From NCBI GenBank assembly GCA_017399145.1, contig JAFQEG010000041.1, positions 3,323 through 67,322 on the forward strand: a DNA stretch of 64,000 nucleotides. Reading direction: 5' to 3'. Shown here one piece after another: positions 1,153 to 60,420 of the stretch. The position numbers and the translations under genes are program-made. This stretch comes from Clostridia bacterium (GTDB lineage: Bacteria; Bacillota; Clostridia; Oscillospirales; CAG-272). The notes under the pieces are model-generated. The model ran no database searches. It worked only from the letters and a program-made list of their open reading frames with translations, and was not told the origin of the DNA. Position 1 is the first letter of the stretch; the number at the start of each line of letters is the position of its first letter.

Positions 1153-1182
1153 TTGACAATGAATGCAAAATTGTGTTAAAAT
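1153..1182 (+). promoter_or_regulatory. Sigma-A type promoter with extended -10
   Basis: TTGACA (1153-1158), 18-nt spacer, TGtTAAAAT (-10 at 1177-1182). Lies about 30 nt upstream of the AAAGGAG RBS and the ATG at 1211. Confidence 0.6.
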
Positions 1183-1210: not shown

Positions 1211-3115
1211 ATGAAAAACAAAATTTTCCTTGTTGTTTCGATGATAATGTTGATTGCTTGTATGCTTGCGGTTTCTGTGAGTGCAGCAGCTAACGATTAT
1301 TTTGGAAACGTAGAAATCATTGATAACGACGGTGATGGTGCAAGCGATATCAACATTTCCGATATGGTACACACTATCATTCAAGAGGGTGATGGAGCTA
1401 TCTCCAGTGCAAGTGCAAGAATGACAATTTCTTGTGATTGCGAAGCGAGCAAGCACACCTTCCCTGCGTATTACATTACGTCACCAAAGAGTACAGCAAG
1501 ACGCTTTTATTGCTTTAGCTTTGACGCGATCAACTCTGTATTGCCCGGATATTGTGGAACAACCTCAAAGGTGTCTGCCTCAAACGTAACCGCATATGAA
1601 TTGCCTAATGGTTATAATGCTATCTATTCTGGCTTCTTTTATGAGGGTGGCGGTAGCACTTACAAGGGAGATGGTATAGAGTATTTTAGCTTCGCTACAT
1701 GCTCAACGCTTACATCTTTTGAGGGCACAGCAAGTGGAAAAAACTGGTTTACAAACTCCACCATAGAAGAGGTTGACTTGGGTCCATATGTTACTAACAT
1801 TCCTGTAATGCTTTTCTACAATTGTGACAGTCTTGAGTATATTACTATTCCTGATCAAATCACAACAATGGACAGACTAGCATTTGCGTACAGCGATAAC
1901 CTGAAAAGAGTATATTTTACAGAAAACTCTCTTCTTACAACAATAGGTGACTCGGTATTTGATCACTGTGGTAACTTGGAGGCATTTTATATTCCACCAA
2001 GACTCACTACACTCGGTGGTTCCTCATCAAATCAGTCCATATTTAATTGTTGTACTAAAATTTATTTCTTGAATAATCCAAACGAAACCGAAAAGCCTGA
2101 CGTGTACTATTTGCCAAGCTCAATTTTGAAATTCGACGGAGAAATTTTTAAGAGCTGTCAAAATTTGAATAATACGATAGTATTCCCTGAGAACGCGACC
2201 TCAATACCAAACGGTTGGGCATTTAACGGCACAAATGCAGTTAACGTTGTATGCCTTGGTAACATGGAAAATGTAAGCACAACGGGTAACGCTTGGAATA
2301 GTAATGTTACTATTTATTTCTGTAATCCTGCAGATAAGTCTACTGCAGACCTCACAGGCATCAACACAAGTGCTAAAAAGGTTTTCTGTAATGCAGACGG
2401 CAATACAACACACCTTTACAAAGTTTCAGTTAACAGAGCACCAACCTGTACCGTGGATGGCGCAAAGGGCTTTGAGTGCTTCTGTGGCGAAGCTGACCTA
2501 AATAACACAATTGTTGATCCGGCTCAAGGTCACGCAAAAACAACAATTGTAGAAATTGCATACAACAGTGCAAACAGATTCTTTGAAAAGGGCGATGTAA
2601 CCTATATTTGTGGCACCTGTGGCGAAAATCACACAGTTGCAAATGACGCAAATGTAATCTTTACCTTTGTTGGATTCTCAGCAACAGAGAAGGTAATGGG
2701 TACAAATGCTATTATTCAAAGCTTTAAGGTTGACCGTGATGCACTTGCGCTATACAACCAAAATTCAGAGCTTGACGTTGTAGGCTACGGTCTTGTTGCA
2801 GGTACAGAGCTTGCACTAGGCGAGAATGCTGAGATATTTGATAACACAGGCGCTGTTACTTCACCAAAGGCTGGCGTTGTTAAGATTTCAGAAAATGCAA
2901 ACAACTATGACATTTTTGAAATGAGAGTTTCTGGCTTGAATGGTACAGTTGAGGTTGAGGGTCAAGACCCAATCGACCTAGCTAAGGTTAAAGTTTACTG
3001 CTGTGGCTATTGCTTGATTCAAACACCTAGTGGTGTTGCTTCATACTATGCAAACAACGGCACAGTTACCGAAACATTAAGTGGTGCTGCAAGCTACGAA
3101 GCACTTCAACAATAA
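1211..3115 (+). CDS. Secreted BspA-type leucine-rich-repeat (LRR_5-like) surface protein with a Cys-rich module and a conserved C-terminal module
   Basis: N-terminal signal peptide (IFLVVSMIMLIACMLAVSVSAAA). Repeats of the type IPDQITTMDRLAFAYSDNLKRVYF and TTIGDSVFDHCGNLEAFYIP. Cys motif CTVDGAKGFECFCGE. The C-terminal 154 aa are homologous to the C-terminus of the 49063-52365 product. Confidence 0.75.
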   Translation: MKNKIFLVVSMIMLIACMLAVSVSAAANDYFGNVEIIDNDGDGASDINISDMVHTIIQEGDGAISSASARMTISCDCEASKHTFPAYYITSPKSTARRFYCFSFDAINSVLPGYCGTTSKVSASNVTAYELPNGYNAIYSGFFYEGGGSTYKGDGIEYFSFATCSTLTSFEGTASGKNWFTNSTIEEVDLGPYVTNIPVMLFYNCDSLEYITIPDQITTMDRLAFAYSDNLKRVYFTENSLLTTIGDSVFDHCGNLEAFYIPPRLTTLGGSSSNQSIFNCCTKIYFLNNPNETEKPDVYYLPSSILKFDGEIFKSCQNLNNTIVFPENATSIPNGWAFNGTNAVNVVCLGNMENVSTTGNAWNSNVTIYFCNPADKSTADLTGINTSAKKVFCNADGNTTHLYKVSVNRAPTCTVDGAKGFECFCGEADLNNTIVDPAQGHAKTTIVEIAYNSANRFFEKGDVTYICGTCGENHTVANDANVIFTFVGFSATEKVMGTNAIIQSFKVDRDALALYNQNSELDVVGYGLVAGTELALGENAEIFDNTGAVTSPKAGVVKISENANNYDIFEMRVSGLNGTVEVEGQDPIDLAKVKVYCCGYCLIQTPSGVASYYANNGTVTETLSGAASYEALQQ

Positions 3116-3129
3116 GAAAGGAGATTGAA

Positions 3130-3297
3130 ATGTATATTTCACCAGAATACAAGCTTGAAATTATCTCAAGCGAGGACATAATGGAATTTTCACCTAACGA
3201 TATTGTAACAACAAAGGAAACCTTTGACTTTGGCGAGGGTGAGGTAGAGGTAACAAAGGGTACTTCAACAGCAGATATTAAAGATCTACTATTCTAA
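3130..3297 (+). CDS. Small acidic protein (55 aa), not in the ORF track; paralog of 48729-48899
   Basis: AAGGAG RBS at 3117-3122, ATG at 3130, TAA at 3295-3297. Translation: MYISPEYKLEIISSEDIMEFSPNDIVTTKETFDFGEGEVEVTKGTSTADIKDLLF. The N-terminal 19 aa are clearly homologous to the second small ORF in this window. Confidence 0.65.
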   Translation: MYISPEYKLEIISSEDIMEFSPNDIVTTKETFDFGEGEVEVTKGTSTADIKDLLF

Positions 3298-3316
3298 TTT
3301 AGTACGGTTGACGGAT

Positions 3317-3340
3317 ACATGCTGGTAAAACCATAACCAC
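3317..3340. repeat. 24-bp direct repeat, copy 1 (ACATGCTGGTAAAACCATAACCAC)
   Basis: Identical to 3534-3557. Each copy lies 16 nt or fewer upstream of a terminator hairpin. Confidence 0.9.
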
Positions 3341-3356
3341 GTGATAAATAAACAAG

Positions 3357-3385
3357 AAGCAAGGACATTTTGTTCTTGCTTTTTT
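3357..3385 (+). terminator. Rho-independent terminator
   Basis: AAGCAAGGACA-ttt-TGTTCTTGCTT hairpin (one G-U pair) followed by a T-run. Confidence 0.75.
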
Positions 3386-3533
3386 GTATGTACGAAAAAG
3401 GTCGAAAGGTGTGCCACCTTTCCTCATTTGATACGTGGTTATTATCGCCGTTTTCGCCTCTCGAAATACGAAGTATTCCTTCGGTTGAAAACGACGATTT
3501 TTCCTCACCATCTATCTCGTCTGGTCAAAGCTA

Positions 3534-3557
3534 ACATGCTGGTAAAACCATAACCAC
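3534..3557. repeat. 24-bp direct repeat, copy 2
   Basis: Identical to 3317-3340. Confidence 0.9.
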
Positions 3558-3561
3558 AGAT

Positions 3562-3592
3562 AAAAAGCCTTGACGGTCGTCAAGGCTTTTTT
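3562..3592 (+). terminator. Rho-independent terminator
   Basis: AGCCTTGAC-ggtc-GTCAAGGCT hairpin followed by T6. Confidence 0.85.
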
Positions 3593-3595
3593 AAT

Positions 3596-3765
3596 GAAAT
3601 CGCTTTGCGATGAAGTCCACTAAGGTGGATGAAGTCACTCTGTGATGAAGTCCTTGCTTTGCAAGGGTTAGCTTTTTATGAAGCCACCCTTGGTGGATGA
3701 AGTCAACTGCGTTGAAGTTATGAATTTGCCCTTGGCAAATATTATGAGCTTACGTTGTAAACGTT
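3596..3765. other. Array of about 8 short hairpins separated by a conserved (G)ATGAAGTC linker; candidate structured RNA or DNA element
   Basis: Exact ATGAAGTC at 3610, 3629, 3645 and 3697. Degenerate copies at 3678, 3712, 3720 and 3744. Between linkers lie stems of different sequence that all preserve pairing: ATCGC/GCGAT, TCCAC/GTGGA, TCAC/GTGA, CCTTGC/GCAAGG, CCACC/GGTGG, TCAAC/GTTGA, ATTTGCC/GGCAAAT. Confidence 0.5.
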
Positions 3766-48640: not shown

Positions 48641-48669
48641 TTGACAAACACTACATATTGTGATAAAAT
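48641..48669 (+). promoter_or_regulatory. Sigma-A type promoter with extended -10, upstream of the small ORF
   Basis: TTGACA (48641-48646), 17-nt spacer, TGaTAAAAT (-10 at 48664-48669). Confidence 0.6.
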
Positions 48670-48728
48670 ACTTACAGTAATATCTATGCAATTATATTAT
48701 TTAGCTTGGCACAAGGAGGGTATTTGAT

Positions 48729-48899
48729 ATGAAATACGTATCACCTAAATATGAATACGAAGTACTTAATACTGAAGATATAATGTTTATTTCTCTAGGA
48801 AATGGAATCTTGGGAACATTAATCCCAGGTGGAGCTGACGAAGATGACAACACAAACGACGTTAGCGTAGAGGTTGATGTAGGTAACCTACTTCCATAA
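48729..48899 (+). CDS. Small acidic protein (56 aa), not in the ORF track; paralog of 3130-3297
   Basis: AAGGAGGG RBS, ATG at 48729, TAA at 48897-48899. Translation: MKYVSPKYEYEVLNTEDIMFISLGNGILGTLIPGGADEDDNTNDVSVEVDVGNLLP. It has its own promoter and terminator. Confidence 0.65.
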   Translation: MKYVSPKYEYEVLNTEDIMFISLGNGILGTLIPGGADEDDNTNDVSVEVDVGNLLP

Positions 48900-48918
48900 C
48901 TTAATTAAGGCGATAAAG

Positions 48919-48949
48919 AAATCCGCACGTTTTTTGTGCGGATTTTTTT
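48919..48949 (+). terminator. Rho-independent terminator
   Basis: AAATCCGCAC-gtttttt-GTGCGGATTT hairpin followed by a T-run. Confidence 0.85.
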
Positions 48950-48998
48950 GTTGTCATTTTTTACAAATTATACCTGCATATTTTGGGATTTATGTCAA

Positions 48999-49027
48999 TT
49001 GACTTGTTTTATAATATATGGTAAAAT
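48999..49027 (+). promoter_or_regulatory. Sigma-A type promoter with extended -10
   Basis: TTGACT (48999-49004), 17-nt spacer, TGgTAAAAT (-10 at 49022-49027). Confidence 0.6.
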
Positions 49028-49062: not shown

Positions 49063-52000
49063 ATGAAAAATAAGTTTTTAACACTAGTCTTTATCCTTGC
49101 ATTTGTTATAGTAATGGCATTTTCAGTAACAGCTGCAACAACCGTTACACCAAGTGCCGAGGACCTAGGCGACTGTGTAATTAATGGAGAGGTTGTCAAC
49201 GGAGATGGCTTACTTGTAACTCAGGGTATGTCCTACACCGTCCTTGACGAGGAATCAAAAACAGTTGCACTTTCCTCACGTGGTAGTGCTGATTCCTTTA
49301 CAGGTGCAGTAGTAATTCCTTCAACAATCAAAATAAATGGAGAGGACTATTCCGTTACAAAAACAAACCCTTATGTTTTTAAGGGTACAAGCATCACAAA
49401 AATTTACGTTCCTGATACAGTAGAAACAATCGCAGGCGATAGCGGACAAGATAACGGTACCTTTGCAAACTGCCATTATATTAGCGAGGTATATATTGGC
49501 ACAGGAATTAAGGTGCTTGGTCGTTTTGCCTTTACAAGCATTGGTAAATACTCACCTGTTAAGGTATTCTACGTAGCAGGTAGAGTACAAGAGTTAGGAG
49601 ACTATGCATTCAATGCAGCAAACTTTGCAGATGATTGCCAAATCACCTTTGACTCCACCGATATGAGAAAAATCGGTATAAGTGTATTTGAAAATGGCTC
49701 GAAATCCTTGAAGAAAATCGACTCACACGTACTTGAATCAATCGGCGAAAGAGGCTTTGCATCAAGTAAGAGCCTTGAATACGTTTTGATTCCTGAATAC
49801 TGTAAGGTTGGTCTGTATGCCTTTAATGGTACAGACAATCTTCAAACTGCAATTATCCTTTGTGCAGATGACGAGATTAAGGAAATTCCGAAGGAAATGT
49901 TTAGCTCGGGAACAGATGGCTACAAGACCAATATATATATTAAAGGTAGAGTAATAGCTACCGAGTGGGCAGTTTTGCCAGGCAGAGCCTTTAATATCTA
50001 TATGGACTCTTATGAAAATGCAAGATATTTTGCAGATTCAATTATGAAATACCAGCACAACAGAATAGCAAACGGCACGTGGTACTTCTGCACACCATAC
50101 AACGGATACTATTGCTTCTCTGCAAATAGTAGCTTTAGCTTGACGCCTAAAACAGACGTAACGGAAGCACCTCACACGGCTATTTATAACAAAGGTGTTG
50201 AAACAAAGGCAACCTGTAACCAATACGCAGGTGTAGGCGATATTTGTGAGGTATGTGGCGCATACTTTAACGTAACTCAAACAGGTAACGAGTACGACGA
50301 AAATGCACACAACTACGTACTAAAATCCCACACAGAACCTCAATGCACTGTAACAGGCTTGGATGTTTACGAATGTACCTACTGTAAGGATACAAAGGAT
50401 GAAGAAATCCCTGCTTTAGGCCACGACTATGCTCAAACGGTAATCGCACCAACCTGTTCGTTAATAGGCTATACAAACAACGTTTGTAAGCGTTGTGAAT
50501 ACTCAATAATCACAGATAAAATCGAAAAAACACCTCACAGCTACGTAGGAAATAGCTTTGTACTTGACGGCATTAATATTTCTTACAAAACAACCTGTGA
50601 GTATTGTGACTCAATAGGTGAGGCTGTAAATACAACACTTGTAAACAAGTGCTATATTGAGGGCTACGGTATTTTTGACGCAACGCTTGAATATCTTTAT
50701 GTTTCAGAGGATGGCACAGCTACCCCGTTAGGCACAACCTTTGACAACGCAGTAATTTACTTCCCATCCTATGTTGAAATAGGTGGCAATGTAGTAGAGG
50801 TAAAGACAATTCAAGGCTTTACAGGCTTATCAATCAAGGGCGTATACATTCCAGACACAGTTACAAGAATTGTAGGTGGCTCAAATGGTACAGGATGCTT
50901 CCAAAATGCTTATGACCTTAAGAATATAGTTGTTGGTAAGGGCATTACCGAGCTTGAAGCATACGCATTCTGTATGTATGGCACAAGCATAAATGTTGAT
51001 GAATTTATCTTTACTAACACAATCCAAAGACTTGGCTCACGTTCCTTGGCACGTATAAACGCATCATCAAGCGATATTCCTTATCAGTTTAATACACGTT
51101 TAACCTATGTAGGCGCTTATGTTTCTGTTTACGACAGAACTGGTGGCAACATTTTAAGAGAGGTTTATATTACAAACGATTGTGATTTAACTGAAAAATT
51201 TGCTTTTAATGGTTCTAATGGCTTAAAGCGTGCTTACATTGAGGGTGGCGAAACAGAAGCTACTGCAAAGGAGCTAACTCAAGAAATGTTTAGTGGCGAT
51301 GCAAAGGACCTGGAAATCTTAATAAGAGGCTACGTAAAAGCAACAGGTCAAGCAGTATTGCCAACTGCTGGTGCACGATTATTCTTCAAAACTATTGACC
51401 AAGCACAGGTGTTTGCAGCAAGTGCAAGAGCACAGTACTATTATGAAAGAGCCTCAAACTCCGCTTGGTATATATGTGAAAGCACTGAAACTGATAGATA
51501 CCTACTTGACAATTTCACAACTACGGCTAGCGAAATTACATTCAAGATACAATCAGGCTATAAACGTTACGAGGCTGGTTTAGAGGTATCAACAGAAAGC
51601 ACCTGTACACAAGGTGGCACAGTTTCTTCATCTTGCTTTTTGTGTGGTAAGGTGCTAGAAAATACAGTTTCAGACCCACTACCACATAGATACGATGGTG
51701 GTGTGTTCGAGGTAACACCAATCTGTTGCGTTACAGGCTCAGTAAAATATACCTGCCTTGATTGTGGCGATGAAATTTTTGTTGCAACAGGACTTGACCT
51801 AAGTGCACATAATCTCGATACCGAAAATGGCGCAGTAATCGTAGATATTACGTACGCAAACGGCTTCCTTGCAAATGGTACGCAAATCGTTTGCTGTGGC
51901 ACATGCTTCGAAAACGTTGAGGGAGAGACAGTTGCACCAATCTTTGTAAACCTTGGCTATACCTATTCAGAAACAGGCTCAGGCGCAATTATGCAGGGCT

Positions 52001-52365
52001 TTGCAATTGATAATAAGGCACTTAACCTTTACCAAAAGGTGACAGGCAAGACAATGGGCTACGGACTAGTTGTAGCAGTTAAAAATGTAGTAAATACAAC
52101 AAGCCTAGTTGACGCAAACGAAAACCCAACAACCGATAAAATCGGTGTAGTTTCCTTCACAGGCAAAACCTACGACGTATTTGAGATGAAGCTTCAGGGC
52201 TTAAAGGAAAGCTATGGAGACCTAGAGGTTTATTGCTGTGCATACTACGTTTTAGATGGTAACGTTTACTATATCGACAACGGCGTAGCAGGACGACAAG
52301 CCCCCGTCGCCGTAACCTATAATAAAGTTGTTGCCCTAACCGAAAACAAAACACCCCTAGAATAA
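49063..52365 (+). CDS. Secreted BspA-type LRR surface protein (1100 aa) with Cys4 modules; paralog of 1211-3115
   Basis: Signal peptide FLTLVFILAFVIVMAFSVTAA. LRR_5-like repeats (VPDTVETIAGDS..FANCHYISEVYIG, IPDTVTRIVGG..FQNAYDLKNIVVG). Cys modules such as PQCTVTGLDVYECTYCKDTKDEEIPALGH. The C-terminal 143 aa are homologous to the other LRR protein. Confidence 0.75.
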   Translation: MKNKFLTLVFILAFVIVMAFSVTAATTVTPSAEDLGDCVINGEVVNGDGLLVTQGMSYTVLDEESKTVALSSRGSADSFTGAVVIPSTIKINGEDYSVTKTNPYVFKGTSITKIYVPDTVETIAGDSGQDNGTFANCHYISEVYIGTGIKVLGRFAFTSIGKYSPVKVFYVAGRVQELGDYAFNAANFADDCQITFDSTDMRKIGISVFENGSKSLKKIDSHVLESIGERGFASSKSLEYVLIPEYCKVGLYAFNGTDNLQTAIILCADDEIKEIPKEMFSSGTDGYKTNIYIKGRVIATEWAVLPGRAFNIYMDSYENARYFADSIMKYQHNRIANGTWYFCTPYNGYYCFSANSSFSLTPKTDVTEAPHTAIYNKGVETKATCNQYAGVGDICEVCGAYFNVTQTGNEYDENAHNYVLKSHTEPQCTVTGLDVYECTYCKDTKDEEIPALGHDYAQTVIAPTCSLIGYTNNVCKRCEYSIITDKIEKTPHSYVGNSFVLDGINISYKTTCEYCDSIGEAVNTTLVNKCYIEGYGIFDATLEYLYVSEDGTATPLGTTFDNAVIYFPSYVEIGGNVVEVKTIQGFTGLSIKGVYIPDTVTRIVGGSNGTGCFQNAYDLKNIVVGKGITELEAYAFCMYGTSINVDEFIFTNTIQRLGSRSLARINASSSDIPYQFNTRLTYVGAYVSVYDRTGGNILREVYITNDCDLTEKFAFNGSNGLKRAYIEGGETEATAKELTQEMFSGDAKDLEILIRGYVKATGQAVLPTAGARLFFKTIDQAQVFAASARAQYYYERASNSAWYICESTETDRYLLDNFTTTASEITFKIQSGYKRYEAGLEVSTESTCTQGGTVSSSCFLCGKVLENTVSDPLPHRYDGGVFEVTPICCVTGSVKYTCLDCGDEIFVATGLDLSAHNLDTENGAVIVDITYANGFLANGTQIVCCGTCFENVEGETVAPIFVNLGYTYSETGSGAIMQGFAIDNKALNLYQKVTGKTMGYGLVVAVKNVVNTTSLVDANENPTTDKIGVVSFTGKTYDVFEMKLQGLKESYGDLEVYCCAYYVLDGNVYYIDNGVAGRQAPVAVTYNKVVALTENKTPLE

Positions 52366-58444: not shown

Positions 58445-58488
58445 AATAGTACAAATAAGTGCAAATTGCACTAAACAAGGAGAAATTT

Positions 58489-60420
58489 ATGAAAAAAAGC
58501 TTATTAGTAGCAGTGCTTGCTATTTTGTGCTTAACTCTTATTCTTTCCTTTACTGCCTGTGGTGGCGGTGGAAACGAGGGTGGCGAATGTGTTGAGCATA
58601 GCTACGGTGAATGGACTTTAGTTAAGTCCCCTTCCTGTACTGACAAGGGCTCTGAAAAGAGAGTTTGTACAGCTTGTCAATCAGAGGAAACTCGTGACAT
58701 TGAATCCCCAGGCCATGATTGGAATGATTGGGTTGTAGTTTCTGAACTTACATGTACAACAGATGGAAAACAGACAAGGTCCTGTAAGACATGTGGCGAA
58801 ACAGAAAATAAAACAGAGGTACACCTAGGACACAATCCAGTTGCAATCGTGCCCGAAAAGGCGCCAAGTGCAGTTGAGGATGGTAATAGTGCAGGCTCAA
58901 AGTGCTCTGAGTGTGGTGAGATATTTGAGGAATCACTTGTTTACCACAAGTACGCAAACGTAGCAAGCAAGGCAGAATGGTCAACAACCGGTAACGGTGA
59001 CTTCTGGGCTATCGATTGGACAAGACTATATGATGGAGATGAGCACACAGGCTCTAACTCACCAAAGGGTGGTAACTACTTTATCTATATGGATTACGAA
59101 AATCCAATGTACCTCAACGATTTCTATATCGTATGTAACGGTTATGGTTCATACAAGCCAGGTGTTGCTTCAACAACTGAAAATACATATAATGTAAAGA
59201 ATCTTAAAATAGTTCTTTACACAAAGGTTATCGACTCAGTAACAAGTGAGGTAACCTACAACGAGGCTTATTCAACTGAGCTAATAGACACGTCAAGCCT
59301 ACTAAGTGTAAGAATTTCTGAGTATGGATATAGTGATACGCTACTTATTTCAAGAATCGGTATTTATATCCAAGGCGGTCAATACAGTGGTGGCGAATAC
59401 CTATATGAGATAGATGCTTACGGCTCAACTCTTATCACAGTATGTGACAATGAGGGCTGTGACTGGGGTGACTGGGTAGTAACCAAGGAGGCAACATGCT
59501 CTAAGGAAGCTCTTACAAACGGCGAGGAAGCTCGTTCATGCTCAAGATGTGGCAAGACAGAAACTAAGACAATCGTAGCGGCTCACGATTGGAGCGATTA
59601 CGTGGAATACGAGGCAGCAAGCTGTGGTACAAACGGCTCAAAGGGAAGATATTGCTTAGTTTGTGATAAGGACGACGAGCTAGTTACAATTCCAATGCCT
59701 TATGACCACAAGTTCGGCGAGTGGTTTGGTGAAGGCTATAGCTGTACCGAGGGTGGTACAATGACAAGAACCTGTCAAAACGATGGCTGTGGCTTCACAG
59801 AAGAAAAGTTTGCTGAACCAGGTCAACACGTAAACGTAACAGTTGAGGGCTACGTAGCACCAACAACAGAGCAAGATGGTGCAACGGGCGTTGCAACATG
59901 TAATTCTTGTGGTACAGTAATTTACGAGAATAGAGTAATTTCTAAGATAGTAAACTATACAAGCACTGCCGAAGTAACTGTATTATCCGACTTTTGGGGT
60001 ATAAAAAACAATGGTGGAACAATTATTGATGGCAATCCAAATACCGGACTTGGAAATGATACAAGGACAACCTCACATGGTATAAGAATTACACTTGCTG
60101 AGTCTTCAGTAATAAACAAGATTATAATAGTAGTAAATAGCACAGGTAGCATTAAAGACCTAGGAACTGCAACCGAGCTTAGCCAAAATAATTATCAGCT
60201 TTCATTTAAATTGTTAAATGCAGCCGGTGAAGAGGTATTTACATCAGAAACCTTCCTTACCGAGGGCAAGGAAACAATCGAGCTAGAGCTTAATGATATA
60301 GAAGCTAAGACTATCGAGATTAATCGTTTCCAACAATCGTATGGTGGTTCAACAAACTGTGCATTGTGGGAGTTTACAGCACTTGGTGGCGGTAAAATCA
60401 TCGAAAACGAAGGAGAATAA
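58489..60420 (+). CDS. Lipoprotein with Cys4 modules and two galactose-binding-like (discoidin/F5-8C-like) domains
   Basis: AAGGAGAA RBS and ATG at 58489. Lipobox LSFTAC. Modules such as SPSCTDKGSEKRVCTACQSEETRDIESPGH and LTCTTDGKQTRSCKTCGETENKTEVHLGH. Domain ends ...YLYEIDAYG and ...ALWEFTALG. The listed start at 58459 has no RBS. Confidence 0.7.
   Translation: MKKSLLVAVLAILCLTLILSFTACGGGGNEGGECVEHSYGEWTLVKSPSCTDKGSEKRVCTACQSEETRDIESPGHDWNDWVVVSELTCTTDGKQTRSCKTCGETENKTEVHLGHNPVAIVPEKAPSAVEDGNSAGSKCSECGEIFEESLVYHKYANVASKAEWSTTGNGDFWAIDWTRLYDGDEHTGSNSPKGGNYFIYMDYENPMYLNDFYIVCNGYGSYKPGVASTTENTYNVKNLKIVLYTKVIDSVTSEVTYNEAYSTELIDTSSLLSVRISEYGYSDTLLISRIGIYIQGGQYSGGEYLYEIDAYGSTLITVCDNEGCDWGDWVVTKEATCSKEALTNGEEARSCSRCGKTETKTIVAAHDWSDYVEYEAASCGTNGSKGRYCLVCDKDDELVTIPMPYDHKFGEWFGEGYSCTEGGTMTRTCQNDGCGFTEEKFAEPGQHVNVTVEGYVAPTTEQDGATGVATCNSCGTVIYENRVISKIVNYTSTAEVTVLSDFWGIKNNGGTIIDGNPNTGLGNDTRTTSHGIRITLAESSVINKIIIVVNSTGSIKDLGTATELSQNNYQLSFKLLNAAGEEVFTSETFLTEGKETIELELNDIEAKTIEINRFQQSYGGSTNCALWEFTALGGGKIIENEGE

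Follow-up and report, generated by a model that had tools for sequence, protein, structure and literature searches.

The locus examined here poses the question of what two short open reading frames (ORFs) lying beside genes for large leucine-rich repeat (LRR) proteins of the BspA type encode, and whether they are genes at all. Both ORFs lie in a 64,000-nt stretch of contig JAFQEG010000041.1 from a Clostridia bacterium (hereafter "the window", in whose positions all coordinates are given unless a contig or locus is named); the assembly (G000) comprises 1.83 Mb in 44 contigs, with a GC content of 39% and a completeness of 76%. We found that the ORFs are real genes under strong purifying selection, and that they belong to a peptide family defined by a family-wide motif, linked to exoprotein genes, and co-occurring, with occasional clustering, with a kinase-RRE-peptidase cassette (RRE, RiPP recognition element; RiPP, peptide synthesized on ribosomes and modified post-translationally). 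With moderate confidence, we favor the reading that these peptides are RiPP-like precursors of the linear polyphosphorylated peptide (LPP) type, served by one central kinase-RRE-peptidase machine and encoded by genes dispersed as second cistrons of surface-protein operons. We infer from this that the peptides would be bound by the RRE, phosphorylated, cleaved from a leader and exported, and that the mature product would act on or with the co-expressed surface protein.

An earlier reading of the window (the original prediction) had proposed a pair of related, real genes, and this part of it stands. The two ORFs (3130..3297 and 48729..48899, here copy 1 and copy 2) both have good ribosome-binding sites (RBSs; AAGGAG and AAGGAGG, respectively), and they lie as described relative to two LRR genes, copy 1 starting 14 nt past the stop of the gene for a 634-aa protein and copy 2 ending 163 nt before that for a 1100-aa protein, with LRR_5 domains confirmed in both. 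Both peptides are acidic (isoelectric point 4.05), Cys-free, and devoid of any hydrophobic signal-like stretch. Their N-termini share 10 of 20 identities and 17 of 20 positives (pairwise E 2e-7), and since a family profile searched against all six-frame ORFs of the genome retrieves copy 2 at E 5e-18, well separated from noise, this similarity is far beyond chance. Across the whole assembly, the search recovered 13 family members (12 full and 1 truncated), of which nine are close to copy 1 (eight full-length and one truncated at a contig end) and four are divergent, namely copy 2 and members on contigs C2, C17, and C28.

The eight full-length paralogs of the copy-1 type are ~90% identical in DNA and almost identical in protein sequence. 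Pairwise synonymous divergence (dS) among them ranges from 0.23 to 1.0 and non-synonymous divergence (dN) from 0 to 0.04, for a dN/dS of ~0.02-0.05, and their variable sites are distributed 6/2/30 over codon positions 1, 2, and 3. This combination of high dS, near-zero dN, and third-position changes is decisive evidence that the peptide ORFs are translated, tightly constrained genes, and, given the same dS and dN values, the protein identity cannot stem from recent gene conversion. That the ORFs arose by chance or are decaying, or that they reflect a conserved RNA or DNA element at the 3' ends of LRR genes that only happens to be open, might have been suspected from the shortness of the ORFs, which go uncalled at a 60-aa cutoff, and from the location of copies at assembly breakpoints beside repeated intergenic DNA. 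This explanation is effectively refuted by the substitution pattern, by the RBS and ATG kept in all copies, and by protein-level homologs found across families and orders in unrelated DNA.

Beyond this genome, the family profile matched 75 clusters at 50% identity (E<1e-3) among 1.84 billion representative proteins, nearly all of them 35-77 aa long. Family-positive genomes amounted to 12 of 151 in a sample of the order and 12 of 399 in a sample of the class, as against 17 of the 18 other species of the genus, each with 1-20 copies. Across 61-62 diverse members, a Tyr, a Pro, and a single Ser never vary and an Asp hardly does, within the pattern M-K-Y-x-x-P-x-Φ-E-x-E-Φ-Φ-x-x-E-D-I-Φ-x-x-S (Φ, hydrophobic), in which Y+14 is acidic and the invariant Ser falls at Y+19. 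C-terminal to this pattern come a Thr/Ser/Asp/Glu/Gly-rich stretch that includes a conserved Gly turn, and a C-terminus that is aromatic or rich in Leu. The simplified motif M-x(0,3)-[YW]xxPx[hydrophobic]-x8-[DE]-x4-S is selective enough to retrieve 12 true members and a single false ORF from the 36,925 six-frame ORFs of the genome.

The N-terminal pattern resembles that of known RiPP leaders. LPP RiPPs were described in Bacilli by Popov et al. (Nat Commun 2026; PMC13381572), with a leader reading YxxPxVLxHQxIxFETxxS, and [Y/W]xxPx[L/V/I/F/A] is the motif by which discrete PqqD-type RREs bind lasso leaders (PMC13381572). This motif is present in both window peptides, and the +5 position is hydrophobic throughout the 61-62 members. 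In the LPP pathway, an HprK-like kinase polyphosphorylates a conserved Ser, a SipW-type signal peptidase cuts off the leader on its presentation by the RRE, and export of the product falls to an MsbA-like pump (PMC13381572); within the segment F-E-T|x-x-S, cleavage follows T-1 and the phospho-Ser occupies core position 3, with the Ser at Y+18 (PMC13381572). The biological role of LPP RiPPs was stated to be unknown by the describing paper (PMC13381572). Like the precursor LppA, members of the present family are short and Cys-free, and combine an N-terminal Y-x-x-P-x-hydrophobic segment with a following beta-strand, an acidic Y+14, and a conserved Ser shortly after it.

The likeness to LppA appears to extend to the gene set of related genomes, which includes an HprK-like kinase, a discrete PqqD-type RRE, an archaeal/SipW-type signal peptidase I, an MsbA-like ATP-binding cassette (ABC) exporter and, in one genome, NTP_transf_5 and Wzz genes from a polysaccharide locus alongside the cassette. 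A strong match to stand-alone PqqD was found in each of the 22 genomes from outside the genus that have the peptide, compared to 43 of the 139 peptide-negative genomes of the order sample (31%), an association with a Fisher p-value of 6e-6 by genome and 1e-3 by genus, with no phylogenetic correction beyond genus level. The cassette consists of a ~240-aa P-loop protein (the candidate HprK-like kinase), the PqqD protein, and a ~150-aa GxSMxP protein (the candidate signal peptidase); the matches of the kinase to NCBIfam ScmC/HprK_rel_A and of the peptidase to sigpep_I_arch/SipW fall below curated cut-offs. The PqqD protein has PbaB1, TbiB1, and LppB as its best PDB matches. Behind the cassette, an ABC_membrane+ABC_tran exporter gene is present in five genomes (G078, G117, G054, G098, and G330), but not in the four cassettes examined within this genus. 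There, 12 of the 17 peptide-bearing other species have the cassette, as three genes between radC-like and rlmA-like / rumA-like genes. Peptide and cassette genes are occasionally adjacent: in G330, the cassette includes a motif-bearing peptide gene that immediately follows a secreted-protein gene and precedes the kinase gene, and in G136, the cassette is adjoined by two peptide genes and two genes for secreted proteins, with ~0.13 chance motif matches expected in that much DNA.

We also observed an NTP_transf_5-type nucleotidyltransferase in the present assembly (C35:5945-7120), within a polysaccharide-biosynthesis locus near a contig end and 30% identical to one beside the cassette of G116. 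LPP clusters in Bacilli likewise hold an NTP_transf_5-type enzyme within capsule loci.

The second defining feature of the family is its genomic position, which copy 1 and its upstream partner illustrate:

1153..1182, + strand: sigma-70-like promoter before the LRR gene, TTGACA-18-TAAAAT, TG-extended, 11 of 12 consensus positions (consensus match only)
1211..3115, + strand: gene for the 634-aa secreted LRR_5 (BspA-type) protein, upstream partner of copy 1
2609..3109, + strand: C-terminal beta-sandwich of the 634-aa protein (aa 467-633), no Pfam model
3118..3123, + strand: RBS of copy 1, AAGGAG, read directly from the sequence, 6 nt 5' of the ATG
3130..3297, + strand: peptide copy 1, 55 aa, MYISPEYKLEIISSEDIMEFS...DLLF, with leader-like residues 1-21 and core-like residues 22-55
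3354..3384, + strand: terminator-like hairpin at the end of the LRR-peptide unit, 14-bp stem and T-run

From its consensus match, the promoter at 1153..1182 probably drives a bicistron of the LRR and peptide genes. The hairpin region has a minimum free energy of -24.7 kcal/mol (z = -3.2), and a consensus terminator scanner gave no call there. The 634-aa protein itself combines an N-terminal signal peptide, LRR_5 repeats (aa 156-272, Pfam), a His/Cys module, and a C-terminal immunoglobulin (Ig)-like beta-sandwich. The His/Cys-rich module (H..x..Y.C...C..(H); window ~2500-2610, aa ~430-466) recurs in paralogs of this protein, and directly precedes the C-terminal sandwich in group-A partners.

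This arrangement is the rule in the genome: all nine assessable copies other than copy 2 lie on the same strand as, and -4 to ~100 nt behind, a gene for a 555-801-aa protein with a classic signal peptide, with no terminator between the upstream gene and the peptide gene. The same linkage was found across unrelated chromosomal contexts in other metagenome-assembled genomes (MAGs), where the peptide gene directly follows a gene for a 550-1000-aa signal-peptide protein (loci L001-L007, L038-L051, and L057-L062). No third conserved gene accompanies the pairs, whose neighbors are PolA, TsaD, XerC-like, RuvAB, DnaD/DnaC, PFK, and similar genes. The link is thus to an upstream secreted-protein gene and not to LRR proteins as such. 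The original prediction, which had placed one peptide next to each LRR gene, fails on this point, as the ~84 LRR_5-type ORFs of the genome, which take up 8.7% of its DNA, far outnumber its 13 peptide genes, with ~10 (at most 13) LRR_5 ORFs having a peptide gene and only ~10 followed by one, and as partners in other genomes include 3keto-disac_hyd lectin-like proteins, DUF4886 proteins, and phosphodiesterase + Laminin_G_3 proteins. This LRR_5 set represents an extreme BspA-like expansion, often in tandem runs (e.g., C17, 6.6-20 kb and 40-52 kb), and within the window comprises the genes at 1211-3115, 49063-52365, and 58459-60420.

What most partners do share is the ~150-aa C-terminal beta-sandwich without a Pfam model, carried by ~38 proteins of this genome and also by peptide partners in other orders. 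About 28 of these ~38 proteins have no small ORF behind them, and no degenerate peptide genes were found behind these ~28. The domain, recognizable by the motifs ...GYS/GAQIR...GLRF...FG...AY.. and DG.V.Y, is common to proteins with quite different N-terminal domains in several Clostridia orders, and behaves like a sorting or anchoring module. In the domain tree, a ~98%-identical peptide follows two domain clades that are only 27-33% identical to each other. On this basis, the peptide does not co-evolve with its neighbor, and its constraint, whatever it is, is one common to the cell.

Structure prediction gave no indication of a complex between the two products. A natural in-frame read-through fusion of a partner C-terminus and a peptide (G116, L042) was modeled by AlphaFold2 as an Ig-like sandwich followed by two C-terminal helices, with a predicted local distance difference test score (pLDDT) of 80-93, while the peptide part of the L042 fusion was disordered (pLDDT 28-37; shallow unpaired alignment, 5-residue linker). 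Donor-strand complementation or another docking of the peptide on the partner's C-terminal domain was accordingly set aside, as nothing in this model, itself built from a shallow, unpaired alignment, supports it. When submitted to Foldseek, the Ig-like domain of the fusion retrieved generic Ig, fibronectin type III, and carbohydrate-binding-module-like folds, none at E<1e-3 in the PDB. The peptide alone was predicted at low confidence (pLDDT 64, predicted template modeling score 0.25) with its N-terminus as coil, a short helix over EDIMEF, then a beta-hairpin, and at the C-terminus a turn or short helix; in this model, the unstructured N-terminus would fit a leader that folds on its binder.

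These observations suggest the following scheme. The 45-60-aa precursors would carry a leader of ~21 residues (Y-x-x-P-x-hydrophobic, an amphipathic beta-strand, and the acidic Y+14), to which the discrete PqqD-type RRE would bind to present the peptide to the HprK-like kinase and the SipW-type signal peptidase. Phosphate would probably be accepted by the invariant Ser at Y+19. The acidic C-terminal part of ~33 residues, for which a beta-hairpin and then an amphipathic ...DLLF tail are predicted, would be released through an ABC exporter or by some other route. With the precursor gene placed as the second, translationally coupled cistron behind a Sec-secreted surface-protein gene, both products would be made together because of this coupling. 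Copy 1 would follow this bicistronic pattern, and copy 2 would have become a stand-alone unit. Among the roles previously put forward for the peptides (adaptor, chaperone, secretion or anchoring partner, or signal), a signal or exported peptide fits best, because of the RiPP-leader-like N-terminus and the co-occurrence with RRE, kinase, and signal peptidase; the fusion model showed no sign of the peptide docking on the partner's C-terminal domain.

Several observations weigh against an LPP-type pathway. The conserved Ser of the family lies at Y+19, compared to Y+18 in LPPs, and the F-E-T triad is missing, with no conserved Thr or Phe, so that no cleavage site can be assigned. Precursor genes located outside the biosynthetic cluster, 13 of them beside unrelated large genes, are unusual for RiPPs, and the "core" is almost invariant among paralogs, unlike the hypervariable cores of typical RiPPs. 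Pfam and NCBIfam scans of five family members returned noise only, the best being a sub-threshold ryptide match (E 0.007), and the family profile had no match among PDB sequences at E<=10. A motif-bearing small ORF was present at only 2 of 16 cassette loci (those of G330 and G136), and because 31% of peptide-negative genomes also have the RRE, the cassette is not specific to the peptide family as detected by its profile. In the present assembly, no discrete PqqD-type RRE was found by PF05402, NF033530, or a custom profile, nor any cassette-type HprK-like kinase or SipW-like peptidase, and five further peptide-bearing genus-mates also lack the cassette, including one 94% complete assembly with 20 copies. 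Further differences from the LPP system lie in the hosts (gut Clostridia as opposed to Bacilli), in the number and dispersal of the precursor genes (up to 20 per genome behind large secreted-protein genes, as opposed to within the cluster), and in the cassette of this genus, which is limited to kinase, RRE, and peptidase, with none in the present assembly. ABC exporters in this assembly are of generic types only.

Assembly gaps are the simplest explanation of the missing cassette, because the genes that flank it elsewhere are missing too: all 13 cassette-flank proteins tested are absent from the present assembly, and four of the genus's five other assemblies without a cassette likewise lack the rumA-like flank. 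In the fifth, the 94% complete assembly with 20 copies, the flank lies on a 3.9-kb contig that ends ~0.8 kb before the expected cassette start. True loss would be the less probable explanation. Altogether, the cassette region is missing or broken in 6 of 19 genus assemblies (including G541, G545, G551, and G553, with contig C58 of G550 measuring 3,859 bp), which suggests a locus either systematically hard to assemble or variable between strains.

An unlikely alternative is that the peptide is a cytoplasmic escort, chaperone, or immunity-like partner that binds the nascent exoprotein 1:1, perhaps at the C-terminal Ig-like domain, and keeps it export-competent or inactive up to its secretion, the RRE cassette being unrelated. 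Small partner genes directly behind secreted-protein genes are known from staphostatins and staphopains, barstar and barnase, and the immunity genes of polymorphic toxins, and the family resembles these in encoding a small acidic protein without signal peptide, co-transcribed directly 3' of a secreted-protein gene. Tight translational coupling at ~30 loci, the pairing of peptide subfamilies with specific partner C-termini (DLLF peptides with the YCCGY-type domain, ...GWN peptides with the GAQIR-type domain, and WFDSIF peptides with DUF4886 proteins), and the lack of the cassette in this assembly and five peptide-bearing genus-mates all fit such a role. However, the established partners are folded proteins of at least 90 aa that co-evolve with a catalytic or toxic domain, whereas the partner domain here is a plain Ig-like sandwich, and neither the near-identical peptide behind two divergent domain clades nor the L042 fusion model, with the limits of its shallow alignment and 5-residue linker, points to co-variation or docking. 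An escort would also be hard to reconcile with the ~28 same-domain proteins that lack a peptide, with orphan copies under their own promoter and terminator, and with Sec substrates being exported unfolded, and it would leave the YxxP...S motif and the co-occurrence with the RRE cassette unexplained.

We consider it very unlikely that the peptides belong to another RiPP class (lasso, graspetide, or radical-S-adenosylmethionine (SAM)) or are quorum-type pheromones released by a bacteriocin-style ABC/C39 transporter, in either case without LPP chemistry. The [Y/W]xxPx[L/V/I/F/A] leader motif is shared with lasso precursors (TbiA/TbiB1, PbaA/PbaB1, and FusA/TfuB1), and the stand-alone PqqD proteins of peptide-positive genomes match lasso B1 proteins, both in the PDB (PbaB1 and TbiB1) and through NCBIfam lasso_PqqD models. 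In several members, moreover, core position 1 is a Ser and positions 8-9 hold Asp/Glu, in a core rich in Thr, Ser, Asp, Glu, and Lys. Yet no macrolactam synthetase (lasso cyclase) or B2 cysteine protease was found at any locus examined, where Pfam-scanned neighbors were housekeeping genes (the scan covering these neighbors, with no genome-wide cyclase search), and the Cys-free window peptides lack both a conserved Asp/Glu at core positions 7-9 and a penultimate leader Thr. Bacteriocin-type export was ruled out by the lack of Peptidase_C39 in the genome, as was a radical-SAM RiPP, since the only SPASM matches are a SCIFF maturase, which has its own Cys-rich precursor, and one unrelated gene.

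Returning to LPP-type precursors, one speculative and rather improbable extension is a RiPP-assisted surface display, in which a single central machine would process many near-invariant peptides, each produced alongside an adhesin or enzyme of its own. Once exported, the phosphorylated acidic peptide would bind or attach to the shared Ig-like domain, or bridge to wall or capsule polymers, and so serve as a universal tether or maturation co-factor for the surface-protein repertoire. Such a role would account for the 1:1 coupling in operons, for a peptide that stays extremely conserved while its partners diverge, and for the polysaccharide loci in which LPP clusters lie. More generally, a role of a mature acidic phosphopeptide with the shared C-terminal domain, the wall, or the capsule would be attractive.

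Copy 2 departs from the bicistronic pattern, as seen from the features around it:

48641..48669, + strand: sigma-70-like promoter of copy 2, TTGACA-17-TAAAAT, TG
48713..48719, + strand: RBS of copy 2, AAGGAGG, read directly from the sequence, 9 nt 5' of the ATG
48729..48899, + strand: peptide copy 2, 56 aa, MKYVSPKYEYEVLNTEDIMFIS...GNLLP, a monocistronic "orphan"
48909..48955, + strand: strong intrinsic terminator directly 3' of copy 2, 20-pair stem and T-run
49063..52365, + strand: gene for the 1100-aa LRR_5 protein (LRR_5 by Pfam), with its own promoter at 48999-49027
51895-52350, + strand: C-terminal beta-sandwich of the 1100-aa protein (aa 945-1096), the same domain as in the 634-aa protein

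Because it has its own promoter and terminator, copy 2 is predicted to be a separate transcription unit, not co-transcribed with the 1100-aa LRR gene. A copy in another assembly (L055, 432-602) occupies the same place, between an ABC permease gene and an LRR gene. Between these two copies, we counted 12 non-synonymous and 5 synonymous codon changes (dN/dS 0.62), with the leader conserved and 11 of the 12 amino-acid changes in the fast-changing C-terminal half. Copy 2 thus seems to evolve unlike copy 1, and from this one comparison looks more like a classical variable RiPP core.

If the LPP-type reading is true, gut Clostridia carry a sister family of the LPPs, with up to 20 copies of precursor genes located outside the cluster, and this family has joined surface-protein operons for adhesin-like LRR proteins, lectins, and hydrolases. 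It would also offer a testable lead to the purpose of phosphorylated peptides, namely something done with cell-surface proteins. Cluster-based RiPP mining would miss all these precursors. The placement of precursor-type peptide genes behind surface-protein genes is new here, and the analysis adds as unannotated families both the peptides (at least 75 clusters at 50% identity, without a model in Pfam or NCBIfam) and the C-terminal Ig-like domain (~38 proteins in a 1.8-Mb genome). A literature search with family sequence strings such as EDVITTS returned no papers.

Additional observations concern the surroundings of these genes. Downstream of copy 1, window positions 3298-3700 hold hairpin-rich repeated DNA, of which 3358-3682 recurs on other contigs at 90-96% identity, and peptide copies with this downstream repeat DNA coincide with assembly breakpoints (C8:1, C12:7393, C14, C22, C43:81854, and C20:1). 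The peptide start is in frame with the upstream gene in only 1 of ~20 pairs, where one third would be expected, most being offset by 2; common descent, or selection that disfavors read-through fusions, may underlie this bias. A reading of the D-x-G-x-G loop and DLLF tail as a dockerin, EF-hand, or clamp-binding motif was dropped for want of a consistent spacing. In one related species only, a Peptidase_C39_2 gene is convergent to the LRR-peptide pair (L002 6040-7170 and L003 2676-3782). Finally, the only clear RiPP pair in the assembly is a SCIFF precursor (…GGCGECQTSCQSACKTSCGIANQACE…) beside its radical-SAM/SPASM maturase, at C35:32458-34118.

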